From a virus (lineage: Duplodnaviria > Caudoviricetes), in IMG/VR virus record IMGVR_UViG_2974533118_000001, positions 6,266-70,265 of that record: a stretch of DNA of 64,000 bases; one strand, written 5' to 3'. Shown here piece by piece: positions 325 through 62,084 of the stretch (within the stretch, counting starts at the first letter, position 1; the number at the start of each line of letters is the position of its first letter). The position numbers and the translations under genes are program-made. Under the pieces are notes generated by a model, which was given only the letters and a program-made list of their open reading frames with translations, was not told the origin of the DNA and did not search any database.

Positions 325-364
325 AGCGCCCCGCAGCCACCCCAAGGCTGTGGGGCGCTTTTTT
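325..364 (+). terminator. Intrinsic terminator
   Basis: AGCGCCCCGCAGCC / GGCTGTGGGGCGCT stem followed by a T-tract. Confidence 0.85.
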
Positions 365-376: not shown

Positions 377-417
377 CCGTCCCACAACCGTGGTCACGCC
401 GTGGGCATTATCAGGGC
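377..417 (+). promoter_or_regulatory. Late-class promoter, copy 1
   Basis: CCGTCCCACA-N20-ATTAT, predicted +1 at A418, directly after the terminator. Confidence 0.7.
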
Positions 418-457
418 ACGAGGCTAGACAACGATTCAGTAGAAACGAGGTAGCACC

Positions 458-688
458 ATGCCGGTCAAGCGCGGTAAAGATGGACGTTTTGCCCCCAACG
501 GTGGACGCGTCCGCGACAAGGGCAAGGCCAAGGGCAAGAAAAAGCCCATCAGCAAATCCGGGTTTGACCGTTGGATGGGTGCCAAAAAGCGAACGGATGC
601 CAAGACAGCGGCCAAGGGCAAGATTTCTGAGGCTGGTTTCAACCGCTGGGCCGACGCGAAAAAGCGCGTTGAGTCCCGCAAAAAGTAA
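458..688 (+). CDS. Lys/Arg-rich head-module protein 1
   Basis: RBS GAGG; 27 of 76 residues are K/R; N-terminus MPVKRGKDGRFAPNGG; internal repeat ISxxGFxRWxxAKKR twice. Confidence 0.85.
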   Translation: MPVKRGKDGRFAPNGGRVRDKGKAKGKKKPISKSGFDRWMGAKKRTDAKTAAKGKISEAGFNRWADAKKRVESRKK

Positions 689-699
689 GGAACGGGAAC

Positions 700-1155
700 A
701 TGCCGGTTAGGCGAGATTCAAACGGGCGGTTCGCTGGCGGAAGCGGTGGGAGTTCTAAGCGAGCTTCCAGGGCGTCCAAGAAAATGGGCGCCGTCAAGCC
801 GCGCACCGCAAGCACTGACCGCAGCAAGGTAACCACCTCCAAGGTTGCTGGCAAGGGCCGGGTAGGGCAGACGGCAAGCAAGGTTGTGCGCACACAGGGC
901 GCGGCTAATCAGGTCAAGGCGGCAAAGTTCGACACCGCCAGCCGCGATCAAGCCATGTCCAAGCGCGTGAACATGAACAAGAAAGCTGGTTTGGCTGGGG
1001 CTGCGTCCAGGAAAGCAAGCTTTGACCGCAGCCCGGACAGGGTAAAGGGCGGACTCAAGAAAGCCGCAAACGTCGCCGGCCGGGACGCGATCAAGGCTGA
1101 GGGGCTGAAGGCGATCACGGGAGAACGACGCTACAAGCGAAAGAACCGGAAGTAG
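700..1155 (+). CDS. Lys/Arg-rich head-module protein 2
   Basis: RBS AAGGA; N-terminus MPVRRDSNGRFAGGSGG; strongly basic. Confidence 0.85.
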   Translation: MPVRRDSNGRFAGGSGGSSKRASRASKKMGAVKPRTASTDRSKVTTSKVAGKGRVGQTASKVVRTQGAANQVKAAKFDTASRDQAMSKRVNMNKKAGLAGAASRKASFDRSPDRVKGGLKKAANVAGRDAIKAEGLKAITGERRYKRKNRK

Positions 1156-1161
1156 AGGGCC

Positions 1162-1545
1162 ATGGCTGTCAAACGAGACTCTAACGGGCGGTTCACGTCC
1201 AGCGGCGGCACCAAGGTGGGCAGCCGTTCCGCCAAGCTGGCCAAGGTCAAGGGCCACAAGAAAGCCGTGTTGGACAACAACAACGCCCGGAAGAACCTGT
1301 CCGAGGTCCGGCGCAAGGCTGAGAAAGCGGACAACTTGGCGTTCCGTAAGGGCGACAAAGAGGGCATGAAGAAAACCGAGGCGCACCTCAAAAAGGTGGG
1401 TGCCGGGGCAAACAAGCTGCTGGACCAGCAAATGAAACTTGGGCAGAAATCCAAGACTGGTGGGCGCAAGCTGTTGCCGTTCAAGCCGGAAGTTGCCAAC
1501 AAAAAGGCGCAGGTCAAAAAGCGCCGCGCGAAAGCGGGGAAGTAG
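1162..1545 (+). CDS. Lys/Arg-rich head-module protein 3
   Basis: RBS GAGGG; N-terminus MAVKRDSNGRFTSSGG; strongly basic. Confidence 0.85.
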   Translation: MAVKRDSNGRFTSSGGTKVGSRSAKLAKVKGHKKAVLDNNNARKNLSEVRRKAEKADNLAFRKGDKEGMKKTEAHLKKVGAGANKLLDQQMKLGQKSKTGGRKLLPFKPEVANKKAQVKKRRAKAGK

Positions 1546-1551
1546 CACACC

Positions 1552-3006
1552 ATGGCTAAATTCAAGACTGTTGAAGGCGTGCCCTTGGTCAAAACTGGGA
1601 CCTGGAACGGTTCCACGGGTGCCCGGGCTATCGGCAAAGAGGACTTGGAAGCAATCGTGGAAGCCCACGAATCCAAGATTCTTGACAAGGGTGTGCTAAA
1701 AAAGGGCCACCTTGACCCACGGCACCAGAACCCCACGTGGGACGGCGAACCGGCCTATGGTCAGGTGGACAACCTCCGCTTGTCCGAGGACGGCGAAACG
1801 CTGCTGGGTGACTACATCAACGTGCCGGAAGACTTGGCCGAATCGCTGCCGTCTGCGTACCCCAACAGGTCCGCAGAAATCGCGTGGGGCGTGAAGCTCA
1901 AGGACGCTGCCGGGAAGGTCACCAAAGAGTTCAAGGCAGCGCTTGCCGGCGTCGCCCTGTTGGGACGCACGCCCCCGGCTGTGAAGGGCTTGGGTGGGCC
2001 GGTGTCCGCGTTCTCTGAGGGGCTGGAATACGAAAGCATTGGTGTGTTCACCATGGTGTCCCAGTTCTCGCTTCCGGGTGGGCTGACGGCCAACGCGCTG
2101 CGTGAGGCGCTGTCTACGGCGATCACCGACGAGTTCAAGGCCAAGCGCACGCTGGACAGCGAATATGGCGAGTGGCCGTGGATGGTGGACTACGACGACA
2201 CCAAGGCGTGGTTCCGTTCCAACGGTGGCGTGTTCCAGGTTGGTTACACCGCGTCTGACGACGGCGTGATCACGCTGAACGACGACGTGACCGAGGTAAT
2301 CGAAAAACGTTCATATGTTCCGGTTCCCGACACGGCCCCCGTCCCACAAACAATGCTTTCCGAAAAGCAAGCTAACGACGTACAGGGCGCCGCAAGCGCC
2401 AACGAGAAAGCTACTAGGGAGGAATCCTCCATGTCCGAGTACCTTAAGAAGCTCCGGGACAAGCTGGGCTTGCCTGACACGGCCACGGAGGAAGAAATCC
2501 TTACCGCAGCCGCCGAGGCCGTCCAGACACCCGCAGCCGACGACAAGGGCGCCGCACCCGCTGCCGCTCCCGCCGCTGCCCCCGCAGCCACCACGGCTGA
2601 GGTCACCGAACAGACCAACAACAGCGCCGGCAAGCACGCCGCCCCCGCTGCTGGTGACAGCGCACCGGAAACCGTTGTGGTTTCCAAGGCCATGTTCTCT
2701 GAGCTCATGACCACCAGCCAGTCCAACGCCGAGCGGTTGGCCGTTTTTGAAGCGGACAAGCGCAAGGCGCACGTTGAGGGCTTGGTTTCCAAGTTCTCTG
2801 CCGCTGGCAAGATTCACCCCAGCGAGGTGGCGTTCTTCACCAGCGCGCTGACCAAGGATGAAGCCGAGACCGTAGCGCACCTTGAGGCGCGAGTCGGGAT
2901 CCCCGTTTCTCCGATTGGTTCCTCGACCGCCGACACCGTGGCTTTCAGCGAAAGCGACAACCTGGACCCGGCGTTCGCCTACTTCAACCTGGAAGGTGGC
3001 AACTAA
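1552..3006 (+). CDS. Capsid maturation protease / scaffold (Mu I/Z-like)
   Basis: VPLVKTGTW...KKGH...PAYG...YPNRSAE...VALLGxTPPAVKGL protease-like N-half; Ala/Pro-rich helical C-half; lies upstream of the capsid genes. Confidence 0.8.
   Translation: MAKFKTVEGVPLVKTGTWNGSTGARAIGKEDLEAIVEAHESKILDKGVLKKGHLDPRHQNPTWDGEPAYGQVDNLRLSEDGETLLGDYINVPEDLAESLPSAYPNRSAEIAWGVKLKDAAGKVTKEFKAALAGVALLGRTPPAVKGLGGPVSAFSEGLEYESIGVFTMVSQFSLPGGLTANALREALSTAITDEFKAKRTLDSEYGEWPWMVDYDDTKAWFRSNGGVFQVGYTASDDGVITLNDDVTEVIEKRSYVPVPDTAPVPQTMLSEKQANDVQGAASANEKATREESSMSEYLKKLRDKLGLPDTATEEEILTAAAEAVQTPAADDKGAAPAAAPAAAPAATTAEVTEQTNNSAGKHAAPAAGDSAPETVVVSKAMFSELMTTSQSNAERLAVFEADKRKAHVEGLVSKFSAAGKIHPSEVAFFTSALTKDEAETVAHLEARVGIPVSPIGSSTADTVAFSESDNLDPAFAYFNLEGGN
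2339..2379 (+). promoter_or_regulatory. Late-class promoter, copy 2 (inside the protease gene)
   Basis: CCGTCCCACA-N20-AAGCT, predicted +1 at G2380. Confidence 0.6.
2431..3006 (+). CDS. Nested in-frame scaffolding protein
   Basis: GGGAGGA RBS 7 nt before an in-frame ATG (MSEYLKKLRDKLGL). Confidence 0.65.
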   Translation: MSEYLKKLRDKLGLPDTATEEEILTAAAEAVQTPAADDKGAAPAAAPAAAPAATTAEVTEQTNNSAGKHAAPAAGDSAPETVVVSKAMFSELMTTSQSNAERLAVFEADKRKAHVEGLVSKFSAAGKIHPSEVAFFTSALTKDEAETVAHLEARVGIPVSPIGSSTADTVAFSESDNLDPAFAYFNLEGGN

Positions 3007-3009
3007 GCC

Positions 3010-3393
3010 ATGGGCAAGTACCAGAACCCAACCGATATTGTCCGCGACCCGGCCAAGAACTACACCGCCAAAGCTGGCGCGGGTGCTGCTGTCCGCGGCT
3101 CGCGTTTCGTGTCTTTCATTGCCGGTGGTAACCGCGAGGTTCCCCGCGCTGCTGAGTCCACCGCAACGTCCGCCGTCGTCGGTGTCTCCAAGTACGACGC
3201 CGCCGCAAACGAGACGTTCGGCATCATCAAGGGTGGACAGGCTGGCGTTATCGCTGGCGGTGCTGTCGCCGCTGGTGACCGGGTGGTCTCCGATGCACAG
3301 GGCCGTGCCGTGAAGGCTGCGGACGGCGCCCCCTACGTCGGTGTTGCGTACACCGACGCCGCCCTCAACGCCGTCGTATACATCGACTTCTAA
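3010..3393 (+). CDS. Capsid decoration/cement protein (DUF2190-like)
   Basis: Small Gly/Ala/Val-rich protein with the AGGAVAAGDRVVSDAQGRAV pattern, between scaffold and MCP. Confidence 0.7.
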   Translation: MGKYQNPTDIVRDPAKNYTAKAGAGAAVRGSRFVSFIAGGNREVPRAAESTATSAVVGVSKYDAAANETFGIIKGGQAGVIAGGAVAAGDRVVSDAQGRAVKAADGAPYVGVAYTDAALNAVVYIDF

Positions 3394-3417
3394 GCCAGAA
3401 AGGCACGGAAAAAACAC

Positions 3418-4314
3418 ATGAGCACTGTCACTTACCCGCCGCAGGGTCCGACCGTAAACGGTCACCAGATCACTGTAGATTGGGCGCTCAAGAACCCTAC
3501 CTTCATCAACAAGGCTGTCAGCCTTGCTGTTCAGGGCAAGTTCATTTCTGACTACATTTTCCGCGCCGGCGACGCCGCTGCGGGTGCTGTGGTCTACGAA
3601 CGCACCCTCGGGCCAAACGAGAAGTACCCGGCCAAGGGCGACGTCCAGATCGTGGAACCGGGCGACGAGTTCCCGCTGGTTGACGTTGGCGAGATTTCCA
3701 AGGAAACCGCCATTGTTGACAAGTTCGGTGCCGCCGCGCTGGTCACCTATGAACAGGTGCGCCGCAACCAGAAGGACAAGATCACTGAGGCAATCGTCAA
3801 GATTTCCAACGCGATCCTCCGCAAGACTGACAGCCGCGCCATGGCTGCCCTTGCTGCGGACCCGGACAAGCTCACGGTTGGCGCTGCCGCACCGTGGGGC
3901 ACCGGCACCCCGGACCCGTTCGCTGACATTGTTGGCGCTGTGGGTCTTGGCGAGGGTCAGGAACTCGACTACAACTTCGATACCGTCCTGATCAACCCCA
4001 CGGACGCTGCCAAGCTGCTCAAGAACCGCGACATTCGAGACCAGCTTCCCCGCGAGGCCGTGGCGTCCAACCCGCTGCTGTCGGGCCGTCTGGAAGGTCT
4101 TGCCGGTTTGAACTGGATTCAGACCAACCGCAAGGCTGCCGGTTCGCTCTACATTCTGCAGCGCAACATCACGGGTGTGCACGCTGAGGAATTGGCGACC
4201 TACACCCGCAACATTGACGAGCCGATCAACGAGCGTTGGCGCGTCCAGGGTGCCCGTGTTTCGGTGCCCATCATCACCGATCCCAAGTCCCTTATCGAAC
4301 TGACGGGAATCTAA
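3418..4314 (+). CDS. Major capsid protein
   Basis: 298 aa, synteny, strongly biased codon usage, actinophage MCP-like sequence (ITVDWALKNP...DPFADI...DTVLINP). Confidence 0.9.
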   Translation: MSTVTYPPQGPTVNGHQITVDWALKNPTFINKAVSLAVQGKFISDYIFRAGDAAAGAVVYERTLGPNEKYPAKGDVQIVEPGDEFPLVDVGEISKETAIVDKFGAAALVTYEQVRRNQKDKITEAIVKISNAILRKTDSRAMAALAADPDKLTVGAAAPWGTGTPDPFADIVGAVGLGEGQELDYNFDTVLINPTDAAKLLKNRDIRDQLPREAVASNPLLSGRLEGLAGLNWIQTNRKAAGSLYILQRNITGVHAEELATYTRNIDEPINERWRVQGARVSVPIITDPKSLIELTGI

Positions 4315-4316
4315 CC

Positions 4317-4718
4317 ATGACCACCGCAGCACAGAAACGCCGCAGCGCGTCCGACGCGCTCAAGGGAACCGCGACCCCGGCAGAGGAAACCCTGCCGCTG
4401 TCCGAGGAAACCGGCGACGCCGCCAAGACCGAGGAAACCCCCGCAACTGGTGACCAGCCGGCCGAAACCAAGGCTGACGCCACGGTGGACGCCCCGGCTG
4501 CTGACCCGGCAGAGGGTGCCGACGTTGACGCGGACGCAGAGGAAGACGACGACGCCGAGGAAGACGAACTGGTGGAAGCCGTAGTGCTGTTCGACCTGTT
4601 CAACTACTTTGACGAGTCCGACGCCCACTGCTCTGCGCTCAAGGGCGTCACGGTGCACGTTGACCATGAGACCGCCAAGCGCGGCGTCAAGCTTGGCGCG
4701 CTCAAGGTCAAGGGCTAA
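4317..4718 (+). CDS. Acidic hypothetical virion protein
   Basis: ATG 2 nt after the MCP stop; Asp/Glu/Ala-rich. Confidence 0.7.
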   Translation: MTTAAQKRRSASDALKGTATPAEETLPLSEETGDAAKTEETPATGDQPAETKADATVDAPAADPAEGADVDADAEEDDDAEEDELVEAVVLFDLFNYFDESDAHCSALKGVTVHVDHETAKRGVKLGALKVKG

Positions 4719-4738
4719 GCCCCGAAAGGCTAAACACC

Positions 4739-5242
4739 ATGGCTGAGGCCGCAACGTGGGGAGTCAGCGTCGATGATGTTTCGGCGCTGGCCCCCCATAT
4801 TGTTATTACCAACGCCGAGGCACCGCCCACGGGCGGAACCCCGGATCCCTACAACGCCACCACGGTTCGGAAGCTCACGAATCAACAGGTGCAAAAGTTC
4901 ATCAACGACGTAACCGCCATGGTGGACATGCGTCTGCATGAGCGTGCCAGGATCACCGACGAGGTGTTCACCGCCAAGATTGCTGCCGCCGCCAAGGACA
5001 TTGTGACCAACGGCGCTGGTTCCTACTTGGTGGCTGCCGCGTTCCCCATGAAAGCTGGCCCGAACGAAAACACCAGCTACGGCGCGGAACTGTGGAACCG
5101 CTACAAATACGGGCTTGAGGAACTGGAAAAGGCCATTGCCGACTTCATCAAAGCCGGTGACGGCATTGTTGTGGTTGAAAAGCCGTCCAGCATTGCCGCT
5201 TTCTTCCCGCCAGTCCGCATCCGGGACGACATGAGGTTTTAG
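4739..5242 (+). CDS. Head-to-tail adaptor
   Basis: Synteny, size, helical composition. Confidence 0.65.
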   Translation: MAEAATWGVSVDDVSALAPHIVITNAEAPPTGGTPDPYNATTVRKLTNQQVQKFINDVTAMVDMRLHERARITDEVFTAKIAAAAKDIVTNGAGSYLVAAAFPMKAGPNENTSYGAELWNRYKYGLEELEKAIADFIKAGDGIVVVEKPSSIAAFFPPVRIRDDMRF

Positions 5243-5245
5243 CAC

Positions 5246-5716
5246 ATGAGTGCCACAATGCGGTTTGAGGGCGAGGGCTTCCGGGCTTTCAACCTCATGT
5301 TGCAACGCTTCCAGATCAACTTCAACGACTCTGAACAGGTCTTTGAGGCCATAGCCGATCACCAAATGACGGTGTGGCAAAAGCAATTCGACCAAGAGGG
5401 CGCATATACCGGCCCGGGCACTTGGTCCGCGCTGTCACCGAACTATGGGGCTTGGAAGCAACGGCACTACCCGGGCAAGAAAATCCTTGAGCTCACGGGC
5501 GATTTGCGCGAGTCGCTGACGGAACGCCCTTTTGGTGTGGATGAAATCAACGATCACGTCATGGTAATTGGTACAGCCGTGCCATATAGCGCGTTCCACC
5601 AGAACGGAACCGAGACCATGCCGGCGCGTCGCATCCTGGAAACGCCCCCCGAAAGGGACCGTTTGCAGTATGCAAAGTACCTTCAAAACTGGATTGTGAA
5701 ACGGAGCGTGACCTAA
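5246..5716 (+). CDS. Virion morphogenesis / neck protein (Mu gpG-like)
   Basis: WxxLSPxY...ILELTGDLRESLT...IGTAVPYSAFHQNG...MPARRIL family pattern. Confidence 0.75.
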   Translation: MSATMRFEGEGFRAFNLMLQRFQINFNDSEQVFEAIADHQMTVWQKQFDQEGAYTGPGTWSALSPNYGAWKQRHYPGKKILELTGDLRESLTERPFGVDEINDHVMVIGTAVPYSAFHQNGTETMPARRILETPPERDRLQYAKYLQNWIVKRSVT

Positions 5717-6333
5717 TGCTTGGTGCCGAGGGTGTTTCCCGTGCGCTGGTGTACCGGCTGCTAGAGCGAGTCCCGGGCAAGCTGGCGGAAATCCGGGCGC
5801 GGCTTGGGGTGGACGCTGACGAGCTCCCGGAACTTGCCGCGATCTATCCCCACGAAATCAGCATCCGGGCTATCAACGCGTACCCGTGCGCTTCCGTGGT
5901 GGCCTACCAGACCACTGGCCGGGTTGGTAACAGGCAATTCGAGTCTGACAGCGGCTATGACGAATATTCGTTCAAGTACAAAATGCGCATTTTTCTATGG
6001 GGCATGTCCAACGACCATGTGGCCACGGACCTGCTGCGCAAACGGCTGGCGCTGGCCGTCCGCGAGGTGCTGCTGAATGACAAGATTTTCTACAACGAAA
6101 ACAGCCAGTATGCAGACCTTGACCCTGACACCCTCTTAGAGTCCTACAGCGACGTGGGCAGCTTGGCGGAAAACCAATTCCTTGGAGGGGTTTACCTTGA
6201 GCTTGAGGTTTCAAGTCAGGAAATCTTGGTGGCGTTCCAGGGTGTCCCCAACCCGGACCCGGCAACGGTGATCCCAGACTTTAGCGCCGTGGGTGAGGGC
6301 GACACGCACCCCGTCCCCCAACCGGAACCCTAG
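5716..6333 (+). CDS. Tail terminator
   Basis: Synteny; TAATG overlap with the upstream gene. Confidence 0.6.
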   Translation: MLGAEGVSRALVYRLLERVPGKLAEIRARLGVDADELPELAAIYPHEISIRAINAYPCASVVAYQTTGRVGNRQFESDSGYDEYSFKYKMRIFLWGMSNDHVATDLLRKRLALAVREVLLNDKIFYNENSQYADLDPDTLLESYSDVGSLAENQFLGGVYLELEVSSQEILVAFQGVPNPDPATVIPDFSAVGEGDTHPVPQPEP

Positions 6334-6351
6334 ACAAATGACCCTAGAGCC
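6311..6351 (+). promoter_or_regulatory. Late-class promoter, copy 3 (leaderless)
   Basis: CCGTCCCCCA-N20-ACCCT-N6-ATG(6352). Confidence 0.7.
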
Positions 6352-6633
6352 ATGACTGAAAACGTGAGGGTTTACAACCCCAATGCATTTGAGGTGGTCA
6401 TTGACCTTGAGGGGCACGCCCTTGACGGTGGTTCTGCCACCGACGTGGGCCGGGACACCCTCACGGACCACCTCATTGATACCGGCCAATTGCTGATTCA
6501 GTACCCGGAACCCGTGCCGGTTGAGTCAGTGGTTGAGGAAGTCCCGGCACCGCCGGCGGCTGACACACCCAAGCCCAAACAGCGGCGAACAAGCACCGAG
6601 GCCACCGGCAACGGTTCTGAGAACAGGAGATAA
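6352..6633 (+). CDS. Hypothetical protein upstream of the sheath gene
   Basis: ORF fills the gap exactly; leaderless start. Confidence 0.7.
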   Translation: MTENVRVYNPNAFEVVIDLEGHALDGGSATDVGRDTLTDHLIDTGQLLIQYPEPVPVESVVEEVPAPPAADTPKPKQRRTSTEATGNGSENRR

Positions 6634-6636
6634 GAA

Positions 6637-8085
6637 ATGGCTATTGGTGTTGAAGTAACCACTTCACTGCGTACCGGCCCCACGAACCCGGGGACGGTTT
6701 CCGGGCGTCTGCAAATTGCTGGCATCACCGAACGCGGGTCGTCCACCGAGTCCGTGCTGGTGAAGTCGCTGGCACAGTATGAAAGCCTCTTTGGCACCCG
6801 TCAGGCTTACGCGTCCAACATGTACGATTCCGCGCGCACATTCTTCGAGGAAGGCGGCTCTGAACTCGTTGTTTCGCGTGCCGTTGGGCCGGCTGCAACT
6901 GCTGGCTTCCTGGTCCTCAAGTCCACTGCCGGAACCGTGGACACGCTGCGTGTGGCTGCCCGTAACCCCGGCTCGCATTCGTCCGCGATCACCGCTGAGG
7001 TGACCGTTTCCGGTGGTCTGTTCACGATCACGGTTCGGCGTAGCTCTGAGGTCATTGGGCTGTTCGCCAACCTGTCCACCCCGGCTGACGCCGTGGCTGC
7101 CGCGTCCACCAACTCGCAGGTGGTTATCACGGACATGGGCGACGCGACCGCAGCACCGGGCAACCAGCCCAAGGCGCTGGCCCCCACCGTGCTGTCCGCT
7201 GGTATTGACGACCGCGCCGCTGTCACGGCCTCTATTGTGGCAACTGCACTGGCAAACCCCGGCCCCATCACCAAGGGCGCTGCCGTGGCAGCACCCGGCT
7301 ATGCTGCGTCCGCCATTGGCTCGCTGCTCATTGCCCACGCCAAGGCTTACGGCAAGGTTGCCCTGTTGTCTCCGGCTTCCGGCGCAACTCCGACCGCCGC
7401 CGCCGCTGAGGCCAAGGCGCTGGTTGGTGCTGACGGTGCCTATGCTGGCGTGTTCTACCCGCATGTGGTCATTCCTGACGGCAACGGCACCCGCACGCTG
7501 TCCCCGGAAGCCTACGTCGGCGCCGTGCGAGCCCGTAGCCACGTCAACATTGGTTTCTGGGCTGTCCCGGCCGGCGAACGTGCCCTGCCGCGCTGGATCG
7601 TTGGCACGGTCACCCCCGTGGACCGTCCAACCAACAACACCCTTGCTGATTCCCAGTTGAACGGCATTGTCACTATCGCCGGTAAGCCCCGGCTGTATGG
7701 CTGGGCATCCCTTGCCCTTGACCGCGACAATCTGGGCATGCTGTCCGCGCAGGACTCCCTCAACAACCTGACGGTTCAGGTGGAGGACACGCTGGAAGAG
7801 TTCATGTTTAGTGGCGTGGACAACCGCGGCGTCCTGCTGGGACGCATTGAGTCCGCCGTTACGGGAATCGTGGATCCCATTGCACTGGCCAATGGTTTCT
7901 ACCCGCGCAAGGTTGACGGTGAAATTGTTGATCCTGGCTACCGCGTGACGGTGGACGAAACGATCAACACCGCCACGAGCCTTGCCAACAACGAGGTCCG
8001 CGTGGCCCTCAGCGTTCGACTTGCCCCCACGGCTGCGTTGATCAAGGCCGAAATCATCAAGGTTGCCCTGTCGGCTGCCGTCTAA
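6637..8085 (+). CDS. Contractile tail sheath protein
   Basis: MAIGVEV...GITERG...VKSLAQYESLFG N-terminus, YYP/PAG and WG motifs, 482 aa. Confidence 0.9.
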   Translation: MAIGVEVTTSLRTGPTNPGTVSGRLQIAGITERGSSTESVLVKSLAQYESLFGTRQAYASNMYDSARTFFEEGGSELVVSRAVGPAATAGFLVLKSTAGTVDTLRVAARNPGSHSSAITAEVTVSGGLFTITVRRSSEVIGLFANLSTPADAVAAASTNSQVVITDMGDATAAPGNQPKALAPTVLSAGIDDRAAVTASIVATALANPGPITKGAAVAAPGYAASAIGSLLIAHAKAYGKVALLSPASGATPTAAAAEAKALVGADGAYAGVFYPHVVIPDGNGTRTLSPEAYVGAVRARSHVNIGFWAVPAGERALPRWIVGTVTPVDRPTNNTLADSQLNGIVTIAGKPRLYGWASLALDRDNLGMLSAQDSLNNLTVQVEDTLEEFMFSGVDNRGVLLGRIESAVTGIVDPIALANGFYPRKVDGEIVDPGYRVTVDETINTATSLANNEVRVALSVRLAPTAALIKAEIIKVALSAAV

Positions 8086-8107
8086 CCCCAAGAAAGGAAT
8101 CTGAGTC

Positions 8108-8512: not shown

Positions 8513-8523
8513 CAACGGGTAAG

Positions 8524-8618
8524 CGTCCCACCCGGGACTTGCTGGGGTTCCGGGTGGGCATATCAGTGGGACGGGGTGCGTCCGAGTTGTCCGTGCTTGG
8601 ACACGCGCCCCGTCCCAC
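8524..8618. repeat. Two tandem GC-rich inverted repeats
   Basis: CCCACCCGG...CCGGGTGGG, then GTGGGACGGGGTGCGTCCGAG...CTTGGACACGCGCCCCGTCCCAC. Confidence 0.65.
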
Positions 8619-8650
8619 ACCCATTTAACGAATCGGGCAATTCTTGTCTC
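8610..8650 (+). promoter_or_regulatory. Late-class promoter, copy 4
   Basis: CCGTCCCACA-N20-ATTCT, predicted +1 at A8651. Confidence 0.6.
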
Positions 8651-8700
8651 AGACCACCCCGCACAAGGCGGGGCGGCGGACTGAACGGACAAAACAGGCC

Positions 8701-9267
8701 ATGACTGAAACAACCCCCGATTACGGCACCATCCCCGCAGCTTCCGGCAGCCACGCAGCCGAGGCCGCAGCGGCGACGCCGACGCCCTACGCTTACGAGG
8801 CCAAGCCGGCACCGGAAGAACGCGAGGAATCGCCGCTTGACGCGCTGCTGGCCGAGTCCAAGAAATCCCTTGAGGAATTTGTGACGTGGCAGGTAGATGG
8901 GCGCGACGGCTGGGCTGTCCGGTTCTCCAACGTGATCGAACCGGAAGACACCAAGCGTTACCGGAAGTCAGCAATCGGTAAGCGCAAGAACCCGGAAGAC
9001 GCCGACCAGGTGGTCGCCGCCGCCATGCCTCTCATTGAGAACTGCCGCGCGATCCTCCGCCACGGCAAGGTGGTTGTTGCCAGCGACGGCGACGACCTCA
9101 CGTTCGGCCACAACCAGTTCATCGAAATGTTCGGCGGCATGGGTTCCATCCACGCTGTCCGGCTGTTCCTTGGGCCGGGTCAGACCCTCTCGTGGGGCGG
9201 CGCTCTCTTTGAGGCTGCGGGCTACGGCGCGGACGTGACCGAAGCCGTGGACCCTCAGAAGTCCTAG
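8701..9267 (+). CDS. Tail assembly chaperone
   Basis: Between the tube and tape measure genes; ATG 8701 preferred over TTG 8644. Confidence 0.75.
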   Translation: MTETTPDYGTIPAASGSHAAEAAAATPTPYAYEAKPAPEEREESPLDALLAESKKSLEEFVTWQVDGRDGWAVRFSNVIEPEDTKRYRKSAIGKRKNPEDADQVVAAAMPLIENCRAILRHGKVVVASDGDDLTFGHNQFIEMFGGMGSIHAVRLFLGPGQTLSWGGALFEAAGYGADVTEAVDPQKS

Positions 9268-9449: not shown

Positions 9450-9464
9450 TTTGGAGGGGTGCCG

Positions 9465-13670: not shown

Positions 13671-13675
13671 CGGGC

Positions 13676-15019: not shown

Positions 15020-15021
15020 AC

Positions 15022-17393: not shown

Positions 17394-17404
17394 GACACCC
17401 CGGC

Positions 17405-17445
17405 CCGTCCCACAGTGAAACGGTCATGACCTCCACCATGGGGGC
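17405..17445 (+). promoter_or_regulatory. Late-class promoter, copy 5 (leaderless)
   Basis: CCGTCCCACA-N20-ACCAT-N6-ATG(17446). Confidence 0.75.
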
Positions 17446-19383
17446 ATGGCCGTTTCAACAACACCCCGCTTTGGCGTAGAGACTTATAGCGCTGGAACTG
17501 ACCCGCACCCCGGGCGAACCAAGTTCAACGAGCGCATGCTGGCATTCGAGGCGCTGGCAGCTATCGCCACGCAAGGCACCACGGGCTCGCGCCCGTCTGC
17601 CGGTAAAGGCCGCGCGTTCTACTGGGACACGACCGTCGACAGGCTCTATTTCGACAACGGCACAGCCTGGAAGGAAGTCACCACCAACGGCGCTGGTGGC
17701 CCGGGCGCGGCGATTGTCCCGGGCGCTGCGGCGGTTGAGGGCACGTCGTCCCGTTCCGCTCGCGCTGACCACACCCACAGCTTGCCGTTGGCCACGGCTG
17801 CGGTGAACGGTGCCATGGCGGCTGCTGATAAGGCCAAGCTTGACGCTGCCAGCGCTGCCCCCACCCCCAACACTTTGGTGATGCTGGACGCCAACGGGCG
17901 CACTCAGGTGGCTGCCCCGTCCGCCGGCGGCGACACCACGAACAAGACGTATGTTGACGCCCAAGTTGCCACGAGGGCGACCACGGCCCACAGCCACGCG
18001 GCTGCGGACATTTCCAGCGGTGTCTTGGCTGCGGCTCGCTTGCCTGCTTCCACCTCCGCTGCCGCGGGTTCCATGTCCGCCGCTGACAAAGCCAAGTTGG
18101 ACGCAGCGTCGGCAGCGGCCACCCCATCAACGCTTGTCCTGTTGGACGGCAACGGACGCGCCGCCGTCGCCAACCCCAGTCTTGCCGGGGAAATCGCAAA
18201 CAAGGGATACGTTGACACCCAAGTTGCCACGAGGGCCACGACGGCGCACACGCACGCTTGGGCGGACATTACCAGCGGCGTGCCCACCACCTTTACCCCC
18301 GCCGCGCACGTCCATGCGGCTGCTGACGTATCAAGCGGCGTCTTTGCGGCTGCCCGTCTTCCCGCAGCGACCGGCGCGGCACAAGGGGCCATGAGCGCAG
18401 CGGACAAGACCAAGCTGGACGGCGCCACCTCACTGGCCACCCCGTCCACACTGGTGATGCTGGACGCTGCCGGACGTGCCGCCGTGGCTGCCCCATCGGG
18501 CGGCGGCGACATTGCAAACAAGACCTATGTGGACGGTCAGGTTGCCACCAAGGCCAACACCACCCACACCCACACATGGGGCCAAATCACGGGCGCGCCG
18601 GCGACCTATGCCCCGTCCGCGCACTCGCATGATTGGTTCGACCTCACGGGCGTGCCCACGGCGTCCCGCACCCAGTCCGGCGTCATGTCAGCTTCTGCTT
18701 ACGCGCTGCTCTACGACGCCACGGCGGCTTACGCAACGTCCAACATTGTCATGCGTGACGCAAACGGCAATATCGAAATCAACCGGCCGATTCAGGACAT
18801 TGACGGCGCTAACAAGCTCTACGTTGACGACCAGATGAACGCGGCCAAGGCCGGAAAGCTGGACGTGTCGGTGTTCACCGCCGCGATTTCCACCAGTGCC
18901 AGCGCTCGCGCGATCCGGTCCCCTAACCTGGGCTCCTACATGACGTTCTACGACAACGGCGTGGTTGAGTCCCCGGCGATCTACAACACCAACGCCGCGA
19001 GCGGTTCCGGCTTCCGTGCTGTCTGGGTCAACAACACTGGCGGTTTGGGCTATAACCTTTCGTCGGAAAAGTTCAAGACCAACATTCAGCCCTACGAGGT
19101 GCCGCTGGAAGTCTTGGACAAGATCGAACCTAAGCGGTTCCAGTACAAAGAGAACGTGGCCGAAATGGGCGAGGACGCCCCGTTCCGGGTCAACTTCATT
19201 GCGGAAGACCTCCACGACGCCGGCCTAACCGAATATGTCAGCTACGACGAAAACGGCACCGAGCGCGAGAACTGCCAAACGATCAACGAGTCGTTGATGG
19301 TCAACGCGCTGTGGAGCTTCGCACAGCAACAGCAAAGCCAGATCAAGGCCATGCAGAACCAACTCAACGAAATGGCCAAGTGA
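17446..19383 (+). CDS. Tail fibre with C-terminal intramolecular chaperone (peptidase S74)
   Basis: AADKAKLD / NKxYVD / HxH repeats; SSEKFKTNI...FQYK...FIAEDL is the S74 pattern. Confidence 0.85.
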   Translation: MAVSTTPRFGVETYSAGTDPHPGRTKFNERMLAFEALAAIATQGTTGSRPSAGKGRAFYWDTTVDRLYFDNGTAWKEVTTNGAGGPGAAIVPGAAAVEGTSSRSARADHTHSLPLATAAVNGAMAAADKAKLDAASAAPTPNTLVMLDANGRTQVAAPSAGGDTTNKTYVDAQVATRATTAHSHAAADISSGVLAAARLPASTSAAAGSMSAADKAKLDAASAAATPSTLVLLDGNGRAAVANPSLAGEIANKGYVDTQVATRATTAHTHAWADITSGVPTTFTPAAHVHAAADVSSGVFAAARLPAATGAAQGAMSAADKTKLDGATSLATPSTLVMLDAAGRAAVAAPSGGGDIANKTYVDGQVATKANTTHTHTWGQITGAPATYAPSAHSHDWFDLTGVPTASRTQSGVMSASAYALLYDATAAYATSNIVMRDANGNIEINRPIQDIDGANKLYVDDQMNAAKAGKLDVSVFTAAISTSASARAIRSPNLGSYMTFYDNGVVESPAIYNTNAASGSGFRAVWVNNTGGLGYNLSSEKFKTNIQPYEVPLEVLDKIEPKRFQYKENVAEMGEDAPFRVNFIAEDLHDAGLTEYVSYDENGTERENCQTINESLMVNALWSFAQQQQSQIKAMQNQLNEMAK

Positions 19384-19670
19384 TGTTTTCCGACATTCCC
19401 GCGTGGATCGGCACCGACCTAACCCCATGGGCAATCGTGGGGCTTGTGGTGGTGTCGATCCTCACGGGCCGGTTTCTGGTGCCGAAGATTTACTACAACG
19501 AAATCAAGGCCGAACGTGACCGTTGGCGGAACGTGGCTGAGTCCCTGACCGGCGATGTGAAAACCATTGCCGGGGCATTGCCCGGGGTGCTTGAGGTGGG
19601 CAAGTCCATGGATAAGGTCATGACCGCCGTGCGCGAGAAAGCCGACGCTGAAACGGGGGCAAGCGAGTGA
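19383..19670 (+). CDS. Membrane protein (lysis cassette)
   Basis: One N-terminal TM helix, then GRFLVP...RDRWR; TGATG overlap. Confidence 0.75.
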   Translation: MFSDIPAWIGTDLTPWAIVGLVVVSILTGRFLVPKIYYNEIKAERDRWRNVAESLTGDVKTIAGALPGVLEVGKSMDKVMTAVREKADAETGASE

Positions 19671-19885
19671 ATGCACTGGGCAGGTTGCTGGGGTGGCACA
19701 AGTACATTGTCAGCGCCGAGGAAAAGGACGCTTCGACGGCGGCACTCGTGGAAGCGGAACAGGTCAAACAAGCCGTGCAAGCACTCCACACAGAATCAAC
19801 CACGGTGGGCGACCGGCAGCGCCGCATTCGTGAAGAAAACAACTGGACACGATCACTTGAGCATGTTTTTAGGGGAGCCCAATGA
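19667..19885 (+). CDS. Hypothetical protein (lysis cassette)
   Basis: Coupled by 4-nt overlaps on both sides. Confidence 0.7.
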   Translation: MNALGRLLGWHKYIVSAEEKDASTAALVEAEQVKQAVQALHTESTTVGDRQRRIREENNWTRSLEHVFRGAQ

Positions 19886-20286
19886 AAAAAGAAATCGGCA
19901 TCGGGCTGGGTGTGATGCTGCTGGCAGCTACCGCGTTCCTTTGGTCCGAACATTCGTCCTTTACCGTCATTCTGCTGGTCATTCTGGTTGGCTCGCTGGC
20001 GGTCTTGACGATCTACTACATGCGCCGTAGCCACTGGCGCCGCTACCCGTCCGGGCGGGTATTTATGTACCTCATTTGGGCGTTTGATGCCCTGATTGTC
20101 TACTGGCTTTTTTCCCGGCTCATTGAGTCCAGGGACTTGAGGATTGGCATTTTCAACGTCCTTATTGCTGGCCTTGTGGCGGCAATTTGGTTGATCACTG
20201 GCACGTTTTGGAAGTCTCAGCGGCGTGCCCGTGCTGAAAGGCTGCGCAACGCAGCACTCACAAAGAAAGAGGAAACCCAGCCATGA
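19882..20286 (+). CDS. Holin-like membrane protein
   Basis: About 4 hydrophobic segments and a basic C-terminus. Confidence 0.7.
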   Translation: MKKEIGIGLGVMLLAATAFLWSEHSSFTVILLVILVGSLAVLTIYYMRRSHWRRYPSGRVFMYLIWAFDALIVYWLFSRLIESRDLRIGIFNVLIAGLVAAIWLITGTFWKSQRRARAERLRNAALTKKEETQP

Positions 20287-21938
20287 CCACTGCATCACAG
20301 GAACGGTTCCTTTCCGGCGCCGCTGGCAACTACTACGACCCGGACGGCGTTTATGCGTTTCAGTGCGTAGACACGGCCATTGCTTACGCCATGGCGTGCT
20401 ACCCGGAAGTGAACTGGGAAACCACGTTTGGCCGAGGCAACGCCCGGGACCATTACCCCAAGTCCAACGCCTACTTTGATTCCATCCCCAACGTGGTGGG
20501 CGACCTCAACAGCTTCCCGCAGCGCGGTGACATTGTGGTGTGGGGCGGGGACAACTTCAACCCCTACGGCCACATTGCCGTGGTGCTGTGGGCTGACGGT
20601 TATAGCATGCGTGTGCTGCAACAGAACGCTGACGGTTCGGCCCGTCTGCCTACGCAGATAGCAACGGTGGGCTACGTCATTCCGGGTGCTGGCGGCGTCG
20701 TGGGCTGGCTGCGTCCCAAGGTGTCCGGCACGGCCCCGACTCCCGCGCCGGCCCCGGTAGCTGGACGACTCAACGGCATTGACGTTTCCATGCACCAAGG
20801 CACCGCGTTGAGCTTCGCCGCAACAGGTGCGCAGTTCGTGGGCATCAAGGCCACCGAGGGCGCGGGATACACGGATCCGCAGTACGTCGCCAACGTGGCC
20901 AAGGCGCGCCGTGAGGGCTTGCCCATCATCCACTACCACTTCGCCCGTCCGTTCGCTCAAGACGGCAACACCGCCACGGCTGAGGCTGACTGGTTCCTTT
21001 CCGTGGTGCGCCCCCAGCTTGGGCCGGACGACATACTGGCCTTGGACTTCGAGGCTGAGAACACCCACCGCACCGATTGGGCCAATGACTTCCTGGACCT
21101 CGTGCACGCCAACACGGAAAAGCGCCCGTGGCTGTACGCCAACCAGTCCGTGGCCAACCAAGCCGGCTGGGATGCCGTCAAGGCCAAGTATCCGCTGTGG
21201 TGCGCCCGTTACCCGTCGCCTGTCATTCAGTCGTGGTCCCCGCTCAACGCGGCACCGTCCGTTCCGGGCTGGAACCTTGTCATGTGGCAATACAGCCAAA
21301 GCGGACGGCTGTCCGGTTACGGCGGCGACCTGGACCTGAATGTCTTCTACGGCGACATGGGCGCATGGCAGACCCTTGCCGCGGGTGGCAACTGGATAGC
21401 TCCGGTTGTTCCTCCTGTTGTGGCGCCCCCGGTGGCTGGCAGCGCGTCACAGTGCATTGTTGAGCCGGGGGACACCCTCAGCGCAATCGCTGCACAGTTC
21501 GGCGTTGACCTTGGCGCACTGATCAAGGCCAACCCGGGAATCAACCCGGAACTGATCTACCCGGGCCAAGTGCTGAACCTTCCCGGTGGTGGTCCGCTGA
21601 CCAACCCCGGCGCCGTGTCTCAGTGCATTGTTGACGCTGGCGACTCGCTGGCCGGTATCGCCGCGCAATTCGGTGTTGACCTTGGGGCTTTGATCAGCCT
21701 CAACGGCATCACTAACCCTGACCTGATTTTCCCGGGTCAGTTGCTCAACCTCCCGGCCAAGGTAGCTGCCCCGGCAGCCCCCGCGCCGGCTGCGGTTCGA
21801 CAGGTGATAGTTGACCCGGGCGACACCTTGGGCGGCATTGCCACCCAATTTGGTGTGGACGCTGGGGCGCTGGCGCGTGTCAACGGCATCACGAACCCGG
21901 ACTATATCCAAGCCGGTCAAGTTCTCAACCTCCCGTAA
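20283..21938 (+). CDS. Endolysin: CHAP + GH25 muramidase + 3 LysM
   Basis: FQCVD...YGHIA (CHAP); GIDVSMHQG...KATEG...LDFE...WQYS...DLNVF (GH25); three V(E/D)xGD(T/S)LxxIA...NP..I.PGQ repeats. Confidence 0.95.
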   Translation: MTTASQERFLSGAAGNYYDPDGVYAFQCVDTAIAYAMACYPEVNWETTFGRGNARDHYPKSNAYFDSIPNVVGDLNSFPQRGDIVVWGGDNFNPYGHIAVVLWADGYSMRVLQQNADGSARLPTQIATVGYVIPGAGGVVGWLRPKVSGTAPTPAPAPVAGRLNGIDVSMHQGTALSFAATGAQFVGIKATEGAGYTDPQYVANVAKARREGLPIIHYHFARPFAQDGNTATAEADWFLSVVRPQLGPDDILALDFEAENTHRTDWANDFLDLVHANTEKRPWLYANQSVANQAGWDAVKAKYPLWCARYPSPVIQSWSPLNAAPSVPGWNLVMWQYSQSGRLSGYGGDLDLNVFYGDMGAWQTLAAGGNWIAPVVPPVVAPPVAGSASQCIVEPGDTLSAIAAQFGVDLGALIKANPGINPELIYPGQVLNLPGGGPLTNPGAVSQCIVDAGDSLAGIAAQFGVDLGALISLNGITNPDLIFPGQLLNLPAKVAAPAAPAPAAVRQVIVDPGDTLGGIATQFGVDAGALARVNGITNPDYIQAGQVLNLP

Positions 21939-21952
21939 GGAATAAATAAATC

Positions 21953-22423
21953 ATGATTGTTTTCGACATTCCCCAGTGGCAGTTCTTTGTCCAGTTGTTC
22001 GGTGGCACCGTCATGACGCTGCTGGTGGGTCTTGTGACCACTCGCGTGACGGCTTCCAGCACTCGCGCCCTCCTGTTGGCGGCGCTGTCGGTGCTGAGCT
22101 CCATAGTCACCGAGCTTGTGGCGGCGCTACAGACCAACACGCCCTATAACTTGGGCACCGCGCTGGCGTTCGGCCTCTTGACGTTCCTGGTAGCTGTTGG
22201 CACCCACTACGGCCTCTTGAAACACACCAGCCTTGAGACCGCCGCGCAGTCCGTTCTGATCAAAGCCTCTGCCCGTGAGGTTGAAGCCGCCGAGCAAGAC
22301 AAAGCCCGTGAGTTGCTGGCAAAAGCTGGCGTGGCCACCATTGCAACAGACCCCGCAGAAGGTGCCGACGTTTTGCGGGTGGCGGACGCCCGATATGTGC
22401 CCCGTCATAGCTCGCGTGAGTAG
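21953..22423 (+). CDS. Holin
   Basis: 3 TM segments, directly after the endolysin. Confidence 0.8.
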   Translation: MIVFDIPQWQFFVQLFGGTVMTLLVGLVTTRVTASSTRALLLAALSVLSSIVTELVAALQTNTPYNLGTALAFGLLTFLVAVGTHYGLLKHTSLETAAQSVLIKASAREVEAAEQDKARELLAKAGVATIATDPAEGADVLRVADARYVPRHSSRE

Positions 22424-22432
22424 CTGAAACGC

Positions 22433-22466
22433 AAGAAAGCCCCCACCAAACGGTGGGGGCTTTCTT
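22433..22466. terminator. Bidirectional intrinsic terminator
   Basis: AAGAAAGCCCCCACC-AAAC-GGTGGGGGCTTTCTT between convergent genes. Confidence 0.9.
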
Positions 22467-22477
22467 TGTGTCCGGGG

Positions 22478-22696
22478 TTAGATGCTGACGTACTTTTGCA
22501 CCGTGTCCAGCAAGTGCATGTAGTCGCTGCTGAGGGCGTCGTCAAAGAATGTTTTGGCTTCCTCCCGGTGTCCCGCTTTCTCAAGGGCTTTGCGGACGCG
22601 TGAGGCGATCATGAAGCCGTTACCGTCGTGACCTTCGAGCGGGACCACGACGTCGGGGAACTTGGGCTGGCCCTCAATTTCGGCGGCGTTAGGCAT
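22478..22696 (-). CDS. Conserved phage hypothetical protein
   Basis: GAAAGGA RBS; LEGHDGNGFMIASRVRKAL...SSDYMHLL pattern. Confidence 0.8.
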   Translation of the reverse strand: MPNAAEIEGQPKFPDVVVPLEGHDGNGFMIASRVRKALEKAGHREEAKTFFDDALSSDYMHLLDTVQKYVSI

Positions 22697-22850
22697 GTTC
22701 TTTGGTGTTCCTTTCGAGTACGGCACCACCGATTTGATAAGTGCCAAAGTTGAAGCGTTGGGCCTTGCGCTGACAGTAGAAACAGCGGTTCAGCGTGCCT
22801 TGGGTGGTCACTATGAAGTAGTGGCCGTGGGTGCTGCAGTGGCTGGTCAT
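22689..22850 (-). CDS. 53-aa Cys/His microprotein (absent from the ORF track)
   Basis: MTSHCSTHGHYFIVTTQGTLNRCFYCQRK...; overlaps both neighbours in a coupled way. Confidence 0.55.
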   Translation of the reverse strand: MTSHCSTHGHYFIVTTQGTLNRCFYCQRKAQRFNFGTYQIGGAVLERNTKEHA

Positions 22851-22942
22851 GGGCGGGGGCCACGATCATGGCGGATACATGAGGGGATGCTGATAAGCAG
22901 AGCTACAGCGACGGGGATTAGGACGATAACGAGAGCGTGCAC
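22847..22942 (-). CDS. 31-aa single-TM peptide (absent from the ORF track)
   Basis: GGAGG RBS, then GTG; HALVIVLIPVAVALLISIPSC; ATGA overlap with the next gene. Confidence 0.55.
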   Translation of the reverse strand: MHALVIVLIPVAVALLISIPSCIRHDRGPRP

Positions 22943-22944
22943 GG

Positions 22945-23256
22945 TTAGACCTCCACAGCCCAAGTGCTGCGGTCATTGGACTGGACTTGCCACGTTGGGT
23001 TGCCGTCGCCGTCGCTGCCGCACCAACTGGCCGGGAAACCAGCCTCTTTGGCTTCCTCAAGGTTCAGAACGGTGCCCACGGTCCAGAACACCAACGGCGG
23101 GTGGCCCTCACGCTTGAGGTCTTCCTCTTGGCCGTAGGCGCGTGCACTCTTGACCTCATTCACACGGACCCGCAGCTGCCAAGTGTGCACAATGTCGCCG
23201 GTTTTCAGTTCGGATGCTTTGCGGGGTTCGGTCTTGTATTCAGCCATGGTGGTCAT
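22945..23256 (-). CDS. Hypothetical protein
   Basis: AAGGA RBS; SH3-like start (KASELKTGDIV). Confidence 0.75.
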   Translation of the reverse strand: MTTMAEYKTEPRKASELKTGDIVHTWQLRVRVNEVKSARAYGQEEDLKREGHPPLVFWTVGTVLNLEEAKEAGFPASWCGSDGDGNPTWQVQSNDRSTWAVEV

Positions 23257-23288
23257 GTCCGTGGTCCTTAGTGTTGTGGCGGGGCTGG

Positions 23289-23843
23289 TTAGTTGCTGGT
23301 GTCTGCTACCAGCGGGACAAGGGCCGAGAGGGGCACCGAGTCAATCTGAATGGGGTTGAGGGCGTGGGGTGCGCCGTTGGCGTGGGTGAGAGTGGCGCGG
23401 CCACGGCTGGGGCGGACGTGGGAAACGGTCCATTCGTAGCCGGGGTGGTGGCCTTTGGTGAGGGCCGTAACCATGATCACCTTGTCGCCTTCGCTGAACT
23501 CAACGCCCTTGTGGGCGAGGTAAGCAATGGCCGTGGCCCGGGCAATGTCTTGCGCCGTGGTGGTGGCCTTCCGGGCGTCGCTGGTGTTCTTCCAGCCAAA
23601 GTCCATGTCCTCAAACCACACGGCGTCTGAGGCTTCCTCAGCGTCGCCGTTTTCGTCCACGGTGTAGAAACCATAGCTGAGTTCGTCCGTGTCGAAACCT
23701 TCACCGATGATGCCGGGGCCGACCTGAACCGCGCCGCCGTCAATGATCAAGGTAGCGCAGCCGCCCCCGGTGTCTTCAACGTGGGCGGTGATGCCCTCAG
23801 CGGCGAAAGCTTCGATCAGTTCGGTAAAGGTAATGGCGGTCAT
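23289..23843 (-). CDS. Acidic early hypothetical protein
   Basis: GAGGA RBS; EDTGGGC motif; first gene after an early promoter. Confidence 0.8.
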   Translation of the reverse strand: MTAITFTELIEAFAAEGITAHVEDTGGGCATLIIDGGAVQVGPGIIGEGFDTDELSYGFYTVDENGDAEEASDAVWFEDMDFGWKNTSDARKATTTAQDIARATAIAYLAHKGVEFSEGDKVIMVTALTKGHHPGYEWTVSHVRPSRGRATLTHANGAPHALNPIQIDSVPLSALVPLVADTSN

Positions 23844-23881
23844 GGTGTCCTCTTTCGTTGTGGCGGGTTGCTACAAGAAAG

Positions 23882-23911
23882 AATGTAGCACGGCACTACA
23901 GAACTACGCAA
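23882..23911 (-). promoter_or_regulatory. Early SigA-type promoter with palindrome
   Basis: TTGCGT-N18-TACATT containing TGTAG-N7-CTACA. Confidence 0.75.
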
Positions 23912-24122
23912 CCCGCTTGAATCCACCGGGCTTGCCGTGTCGCTGGACATGATCAATGAACGGCTGAATGGTGGCTGGCTTCCACCCCGGGGAATGGCTG
24001 GTAATGAAATCGGGCGTGGGCATGTTGTCGCGCATTTGCCATGCGCGCACGGTCTTGACCTCCACCTTGAGCGTGGCGGCAATTTCGGCGTAACCGATCA
24101 AGCGAACAGGTTTCTTAGGCAT
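23904..24122 (-). CDS. HTH DNA-binding protein (AlpA/excisionase-like)
   Basis: GGGAGGA RBS; LIGYAEIAATLKVEVKTVRAW...MPTPD...PGW. Confidence 0.8.
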   Translation of the reverse strand: MPKKPVRLIGYAEIAATLKVEVKTVRAWQMRDNMPTPDFITSHSPGWKPATIQPFIDHVQRHGKPGGFKRVA

Positions 24123-24155
24123 CGGGGGTTCCTCCCGGGTAGTTGTGGTCAATTG

Positions 24156-24185
24156 AGTGTAGCGGGGCGCTACGTGAGGCCGCAA
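24156..24185 (-). promoter_or_regulatory. Early SigA-type promoter with palindrome
   Basis: TTGCGG-N18-TACACT containing CGTAG-N7-CTACA. Confidence 0.7.
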
Positions 24186-24192
24186 CGCACCC

Positions 24193-24233
24193 CCGTCCCC
24201 CAGCCCCGGGCCGGTAGCTGTCACCATGGGGCC
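24193..24233 (+). promoter_or_regulatory. Late-class promoter, copy 6 (leaderless)
   Basis: CCGTCCCCCA-N20-ACCAT-N6-ATG(24234). Confidence 0.75.
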
Positions 24234-62051: not shown

Positions 62052-62084
62052 AAGACCACCACCCCATCAAGAAAGACCCACCCC

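Follow-up and report, generated by a model that had tools for sequence, protein, structure and literature searches.

A phage-specific box in place of the -35 element at predicted late promoters of an Arthrobacter myovirus and its relatives

Background

Which signal would turn on the virion genes of a lytic Arthrobacter phage, and what would read that signal? The question is raised by a 64,000-nucleotide (nt) stretch of a tailed-phage genome (Caudoviricetes; IMG/VR record IMGVR_UViG_2974533118_000001), in which a 10-nt box, CCGTCCCMCA (M being A or C; hereafter the late box), recurs at a fixed distance upstream of a sequence resembling a bacterial -10 element. This stretch, called the window throughout, takes up the final 64 kb (bases 6266-70265) of a genome of 70,265 bp and is 99.5% identical to Arthrobacter phage RosiePosie (compared over the first 20 kb); RosiePosie-type phages are cluster AR myoviruses of the genus Klausavirus with Arthrobacter as host. 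Gene numbers follow the RosiePosie annotation mapped onto the window. We found no publication describing the box, and the published genome study of the related phage ArV1 may list these promoters. An initial annotation of the window had proposed a late-promoter code in which a host-type -10 element is combined with a non-canonical box recognized by a phage activator. Our analysis leads to a similar reading, to which we assign a probability of roughly 0.7: the sites are activator-dependent promoters of the late (virion and lysis) genes, built from a -10 element for the host primary sigma factor and a phage-specific box that takes the place of the -35 element. What can be read directly from the DNA is the motif with its geometry and conservation, its restriction to phages and the order of the genes around it.

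Results

The late box was found at 377, 2339, 6311, 8610, 17405 and 24193, always on the plus strand and exactly where it had been annotated, with 0.85 copies expected and none of 100 shuffled sequences reaching six. In every one of these copies the bases 20 and 24 nt past the box are A and T, which bears out the reported ANNNT element, and a purine follows 6 nt after the T; to this we add a C directly before the purine, likewise in all six. With the purine as predicted transcription start (+1), the box occupies -41 to -32, and the A and T fall at -11 and -7. A motif scan, which the initial annotation had suggested as a check, gave six matches to the composite CCGTCCCMCA-N20-ANNNT-N5-C-purine in the window, all on the plus strand, compared with 0.00 in shuffles. 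The predicted +1 is the A of an ATG at 6352, 17446 and 24234, and the three leaderless starts listed earlier are thereby recovered. A seventh box, at genome position 2772 and outside the window, has the same geometry and a predicted +1 at the ATG of the portal gene; the earlier count of six is thus right for the window but one short for the genome. Virion genes do lie downstream of the copies, as had been claimed, but the copy at 2339 does not precede a gene, lying instead within gene 10, the protease/scaffold gene. Beyond the box, four of the seven sites have GACAC at -51 to -47, P27 has it shifted upstream by one base (Table 1), P38 has GCAAC instead, and the portal site has neither. The box together with GACAC is devoid of dyad symmetry.

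Per genome, the predicted +1 falls on an ATG in four of seven promoters, and in the other three the start codon lies 40, 50 or 51 nt downstream, so the box keeps a constant distance to -10 and +1 whereas the start codon does not (0, 40, 50 and 51 nt from +1). This bears on the idea that the sites are not promoters at all but a signal tied to translation (comparable to the start-associated sequences of mycobacteriophages of cluster K), a site where RNA is processed or a boundary at which modules have recombined. The copies do sit at module boundaries and four of them abut start codons; nevertheless, where the start codon is 40-51 nt further away the distance to ANNNT and the C at -1 with purine at +1 are still exact, and one site lies within a coding sequence, where it heads a nested gene. 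In addition, the geometry is that of actinobacterial -10/+1 sequences (PMC3898074), and we give hardly any weight to a non-promoter role. Actinobacterial SigA-type leaderless promoters have TANNNT 7-12 nt before the start site, a preferred purine at +1 and no conserved -35 element (PMC3898074). The present sites share with them A-11 and T-7, the purine at +1 and predicted transcription from the start codon, but differ in having C for T-12 in most copies and an invariant upstream box, which host promoters are without.

Table 1. Predicted promoters and associated features (window coordinates unless marked as genome positions)
Feature	Position	Strand	Description
P4	genome 2772 (box), outside the window	+	Portal gene; predicted +1 at genome 2813; predicted leaderless
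Intrinsic terminator	325..359	+	Strong; 14-bp stem and T-run, ending 18 nt before the P7 box; closes the transcription unit preceding P7
P7	367..418	+	GACAC 367-371, box 377-386, -10 ATTAT 407-411, predicted +1 A418; 40-nt leader to the gene 7 ATG at 458; promoter conserved in five Klausavirus species; heads three small genes and the protease/scaffold gene
P10int	2329..2380	+	Within the protein-coding region of gene 10; box 2339-2348, -10 AAGCT, predicted +1 G2380
Nested scaffold gene	2431..3006	+	In frame; C-terminal 191 amino acids (aa) of gene 10
P17	6301..6352	+	Box 6311-6320 in the 3' end of gene 16; -10 ACCCT; predicted +1 at the gene 17 ATG, leaderless; heads gene 17, then sheath and tube genes
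Two strong hairpins	8525..8618	+	3' of the tail-tube gene; minimum free energy -78.6 kcal/mol, z -6.5
P20	8600..8651	+	Box 8610-8619, -10 ATTCT, predicted +1 A8651; heads tail chaperone genes and tape measure
Gene 20	8701..9267	+	Putative tail assembly chaperone; ATG 8701, 50 nt past the predicted +1
P27	17394..17446	+	Box 17405-17414, -10 ACCAT; predicted +1 at the gene 27 ATG, leaderless; heads a minor tail protein gene, then lysis genes
Gene 37	23904..24122	-	72-aa AlpA/Xis-like helix-turn-helix (HTH) protein; weaker candidate regulator
P38	24183..24234	+	Box 24193-24202, -10 ACCAT; predicted +1 at the gene 38 ATG, leaderless; heads baseplate wedge (gene 38) and J; divergent from HTH gene 37
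AAAACAGGCACG class sites	35646, 39101, 41644, 43471, 45859, 47975, 49810, 52339, 59670, 61159, 62019		Second promoter class
Last middle box copy (AAAAACAAGCACG)	62019..62064	+	Upstream of genes 108-112
Gene 109	62601..62744	+	47-aa three-helix HTH protein with acidic tail; candidate box-binding protein
Gene 1	genome 1-660, outside the window		219 aa, zinc ribbon

All seven sites recur at corresponding places in the Klausavirus phages Colucci, ArV1, KBurrousTX and DrYang (about 80% DNA identity), which gave 35 sites for comparison (seven in each of five species). Across these, positions -41 to -32 are invariant or nearly so, except for the M at -34; A-11 and T-7 are present in 35/35, C-1 and the purine at +1 each in 34/35, and C occupies -12 in 24/35, while the 20-nt spacer and the flanks drift. 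Such a pattern looks like the footprint expected of a promoter with a fixed start site, and the conserved geometry supports the earlier proposal in which a -10 of host type (A-11/T-7) is joined by a box of non-canonical sequence at -41 to -32. One further candidate was rejected: a one-mismatch box, ACGTCCCCCA (29155-29195, in the MRE11-like gene), is followed by a correctly spaced AAGCT and recurs in three further species, but it is without GACAC and has a pyrimidine at +1, and it probably reflects coding-sequence conservation or coincidence. A Shine-Dalgarno census was likewise set aside as support for the leaderless starts, being too noisy (a simple rule scores only 53 of 103 genes).

The promoter model predicts that the nested scaffold gene has a start codon with a Shine-Dalgarno sequence and that the start of gene 20 lies downstream of its predicted +1, and both predictions hold. 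Within gene 10, the internal +1 (2380) is followed by GGGAGG (2417-2422) in the arrangement GGGAGG-N8-ATG, the ATG standing 51 nt past it. An internal site, a Shine-Dalgarno sequence and an in-frame start 30-51 nt past the internal +1 are found in 11 of the 11 genomes compared, in which the nested products share the beginning ..LKxKLGLPxxAT..; gene 10 residues 281-449, exactly the C-terminal nested part, match the Pfam family Mu-like_Pro. For gene 20, the start annotated in RosiePosie (TTG 8644) would lie upstream of the predicted +1 at 8651, and the starts annotated in the four other species lie 49-53 nt past theirs, from which ATG 8701, the in-frame codon that agrees with these annotations, is likely to be the true start.

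We then asked how far the late box extends beyond Klausavirus. An IMG/VR scan with the leaderless pattern showed that other high-GC phages carry it in several copies each, and (G/A)ACAC stood at its usual position in 43 of 74 distinct sites (IMG/VR loci of at least 58% GC). Allowing one mismatch, six to nine sites each were found in Brent (Marthavirus), three further IMG/VR genomes (G102-G104) and a provirus (G105), and eight late boxes lie in a prophage of Pseudarthrobacter sp. P1 (NZ_CP189584.1, about 926-953 kb). The terminase-to-baseplate genes of this prophage are 37-61% identical to those of the present phage, and it has homologues of genes 1 and 109; by these comparisons it is a temperate or defective cousin of the cluster AR/AO myoviruses. 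In all these genomes the sites stand at homologous genes, with virion proteins only 35-60% identical, and variants such as CCTTCCCACA (G104) and GCGTCCCACA (Brent) reduce the box core to TCCCMCA. On this evidence the late box is common to several phage genera and a prophage, and not private to the present phage. A search of genome contigs with the tail-sheath protein returned no relatives.

In bacterial chromosomes the box is scarce. The extended leaderless pattern has three matches in 185,579 bacterial genomes (596 Gb), and the core pattern has 91 in 101 Micrococcaceae genomes, or about 0.28 per Mb compared with about 100 per Mb in the phage, a roughly 360-fold difference. That is about 0.9 per Micrococcaceae genome against about 0.4 for the reversed control (roughly twice), and several of the matches are one conserved coding sequence, while three of five in the richest genome belong to the prophage described above. 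Judged by these counts, the box does not represent a host regulon or a host promoter class. Since it is phage-specific and rare in host-family genomes, a dedicated factor would be needed to read it. That factor could be encoded by the host, as an alternative sigma factor or activator, with no phage protein required, and this would fit both the sharing of the box by phages of the same host group with almost entirely different non-structural genes and the failure to find a canonical phage regulator family. We nonetheless regard a host factor as unlikely, because several of the few matches in host-family genomes are one coding sequence and others lie in a prophage, the extended pattern has so few matches in 596 Gb, and the -10 is of the primary-sigma type rather than the extracytoplasmic function (ECF) type.

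If the factor is phage-encoded, it belongs to no family that we could recognize. Six-frame searches of the whole genome at E<=1 gave no match to Sigma70_r2 (PF04542), a search that divergent types like T4 gp55 escape, and none to Whib (PF02467), in agreement with the initial annotation; sigma region 4_2 scored no more than 11 bits, with gene 37 as the match. When 73 non-structural proteins were scanned against Pfam (E<=0.01), no regulator family came up, MotA and AsiA included, neither these proteins nor gene 1 matched Mor (PF08765) or Ogr_Delta (PF04606), and no open reading frame (ORF) is large enough for a phage RNA polymerase. With sigma region 2, WhiB, regulator families and a polymerase-sized ORF all lacking, it is most likely that the host primary sigma reads the -10 and an unrecognized factor reads the box. 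Of the suggested phage activator acting in the manner of Mu C or P2 Ogr, the dedicated factor is thus supported by phage specificity and rarity in the host, but Mor/C and Ogr/Delta proteins were not found and the likeness is one of logic only.

Few non-structural genes are common to the distant box-bearing genomes, namely gene 1, SSB, RusA, gene 109 and, weakly, gene 37. By its distribution, gene 1 is the best candidate for the reader of the box. Homologues occur in six of the six more distant box-bearing genomes and on 25 IMG/VR contigs, and the gene is present in every box-bearing genome searched save one 63%-complete fragment; its place is at the end of the non-structural region, and a box often follows immediately after it. 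Its product combines a zinc ribbon (CxxC-N10-CxxCxGxG), a basic linker and an invariant RGLPxLSxxGHPSHLAR motif. It matched no Pfam family at E<=0.1 and fell into a PHROGs family of unknown function (phrog_5264); its AlphaFold model (pLDDT 75) gave no Foldseek match (best E 3), the best hit of a wide VIA search (Z 4.3) was at background, and the ESM Atlas returned nothing. A more distant lineage of lower GC content, represented by three IMG/VR contigs (L163, L167 and L169; 60-63 kb, 56-57% GC), also has a gene 1 homologue. On these contigs a box lies about 110-190 nt past the homologue (exact, but with three mismatches in L163), followed by N20-ACAAT-N6-G. Their layout suggests that the pairing of gene 1 with the first late promoter is old.

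Gene 109 occurs in five of the six more distant box-bearing genomes, always 0.5-2.3 kb upstream of gene 1. Six of 13 homologues match Sigma70_r4_2 (best E 0.002, below the Pfam cut-off), and AlphaFold models the protein as a three-helix HTH similar to resolvase, NarL/DosR and region 4 of SigD (TMq 0.65-0.74 at a Foldseek E of about 1). Gene 109 may be an accessory DNA-binding partner. Overlapping its GTG start by GTGA is a small ORF unannotated in RosiePosie (62464-62604), encoding a 46-aa CxxC...CxC zinc-ribbon-like peptide; Brent has a small Cys/His-containing gene in its place (gene 59), and G102 has neither this ORF nor gene 109. Weak relatives of gene 37 were detected in four lytic relatives (Brent, G102, G103 and G104). 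The ParB-like Brent gene 66, which adjoins the gene 1 homologue, was dismissed, having no counterpart in the present phage.

A second promoter class, with AAAACAGGCACG-N12/13 and then T-G, often at a leaderless ATG, has 11 sites in the window (35646-62064). Neither Brent nor the Pseudarthrobacter prophage has this middle box, which is thus, in contrast to the late box, confined to Klausavirus. Its last copy would drive genes 108-112 and also, were the DNA circular or concatemeric, genes 1-3, so that both candidate regulators would come under its control. The placement of genes 1 and 109 downstream of this copy would fit a middle-to-late cascade. Elsewhere in the window, the counterpart of RosiePosie gene 34 (22677-22850, minus strand) has one in-frame stop codon in the present genome.

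Discussion

Our preferred reading can be set out as a mechanism. Host RNA polymerase with its primary sigma factor would read a minimal -10 element, c-A-N-N-N-T, through A-11 and T-7, and would start at the purine 6 nt past it. At four of the seven promoters this purine is also the first base of the ATG, and leaderless mRNAs would result. In place of the -35 hexamer, a phage element of about 20 bp, made up of (G/A)ACAC at -51 to -47 and CCGTCCCMCA at -41 to -32, would be bound by a dedicated factor, most probably phage-encoded, that recruits or adapts the polymerase; its source would be the middle transcription unit that directly precedes the terminase genes.

The same element might act in the opposite sense, as a negative-control operator, i.e. 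a stoperator-like or repressor site at -41 to -32 that holds off constitutive -10-only promoters early in infection. All copies are in one orientation, the box also occurs in two proviruses, and an inverted second copy lies upstream of P20. There, the second of the two hairpins has GACAC and the P20 box itself as its 3' arm and an inverted box copy (8566-8576) as its 5' arm, and the inverted copy is also found in relatives; the structure could be a terminator built from a promoter element, or a second, inverted binding site. However, a minimal -10 with neither T-12 nor a TG extension is unlikely to be strong on its own, fixed spacing to -10 and +1 and placement at -41 to -32 are typical of activation, and the lytic phages considered here have no annotated integrase or repressor. 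We therefore judge an operator role to be distinctly improbable.

Several points weigh against activator-dependent late promoters, or against the factors proposed for them. Start sites, late timing, activator dependence and the identity of the factor are all matters that we infer. The base at -12 is C and not the usual T, so that another or a modified sigma factor is possible. A host factor is conceivable too, if it has few targets on the chromosome. Shared ancestry of the virion module confounds the co-occurrence of gene 1 and the box, and gene 1 has no recognizable DNA-binding fold and no match in the PDB. As a universal reader gene 109 is weakened by G102, which carries seven boxes and yet is without gene 109 and its neighbour, and its likeness to sigma region 4 is weak at the E values given above (0.002 and about 1). 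It is with this in mind that we put forward, as a tentative idea that is well short of an even chance, that gene 1 founds a new class of late-transcription factor, an activator or sigma adaptor through which actinobacterial RNA polymerase would read TCCCMCA at -38 to -32 instead of a -35 element, with gene 109 as its partner in most lineages.

The proposed promoters can be compared with several known systems. Late promoters of Mu are activated by C and its Pm promoter by Mor, and those of P2 and P4 by Ogr and Delta; the Mu and P2 late promoters have only a -10 and depend on a small activator made by the phage, whose binding site overlaps the -35 region and extends upstream of it, and each of several late operons has its own copy. 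Mor and C bind a dyad-symmetric site overlapping -35. The present phage resembles Mu in its head module (a MuF-like gene 5 and the Mu-like_Pro match in gene 10) and P2 in the zinc ribbon of gene 1, but Ogr is only a third as large as gene 1 and shows no detectable relation to it, neither Mor nor Ogr_Delta is matched, and the box lacks a dyad. Among mycobacteriophages, the start-associated sequences of cluster K stand at a fixed short distance from the start codon, and the stoperators of cluster A are repressor sites present in many copies inside transcription units; the late box differs from both in its variable distance to the start codon, and in having only seven copies, each heading a gene block.

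In phage T4, the MotA box is centred near -30. T4 middle promoters combine this box with a sigma-70 -10 element and are used through sigma appropriation by AsiA and MotA (PMC7403470). The present sites likewise keep the host -10, replace the -35 by a phage box at fixed distance and head a temporal class in many copies; they differ in the sequence and position of the box (-41 to -32 with -51 to -47), in the lack of a detectable MotA or AsiA, in the actinobacterial host and in that most messages would be leaderless. Closer to the host, mycobacterial PafBC exemplifies sigma adaptation, in which the housekeeping sigma factor uses hybrid promoters without a -35, with a canonical -10 and an activator element at -26 (PMC8635444). 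Actinobacterial RNA polymerase with the housekeeping sigma, the absent -35 and an activator-specific upstream element are common to both, whereas the PafBC activator is a host WYL-domain protein, and here the element is phage-specific, lies at -41 to -32 and is accompanied by no PafBC-like protein that we could see. By analogy, then, the resemblance to T4, Mu, P2 and PafBC appears to be one of mechanism and not of membership, no defining protein of these families having been found.

Conclusions

Late promoters that lack a -35 element and depend on a factor are well known from T4, Mu and P2, and the surprise is moderate unless the factor is new. Almost nothing, on the other hand, is known of late-gene timing in actinobacteriophages, and here the late regulon of a cultured Arthrobacter phage group becomes readable from its sequence, with seven promoters, exact predicted starts and a nested scaffold gene. 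Candidates for the reader now come down to a single universal gene plus one or two small HTH genes; in addition, gene starts would be corrected, and tightly phage-dependent promoters would be offered for use in Actinobacteria.

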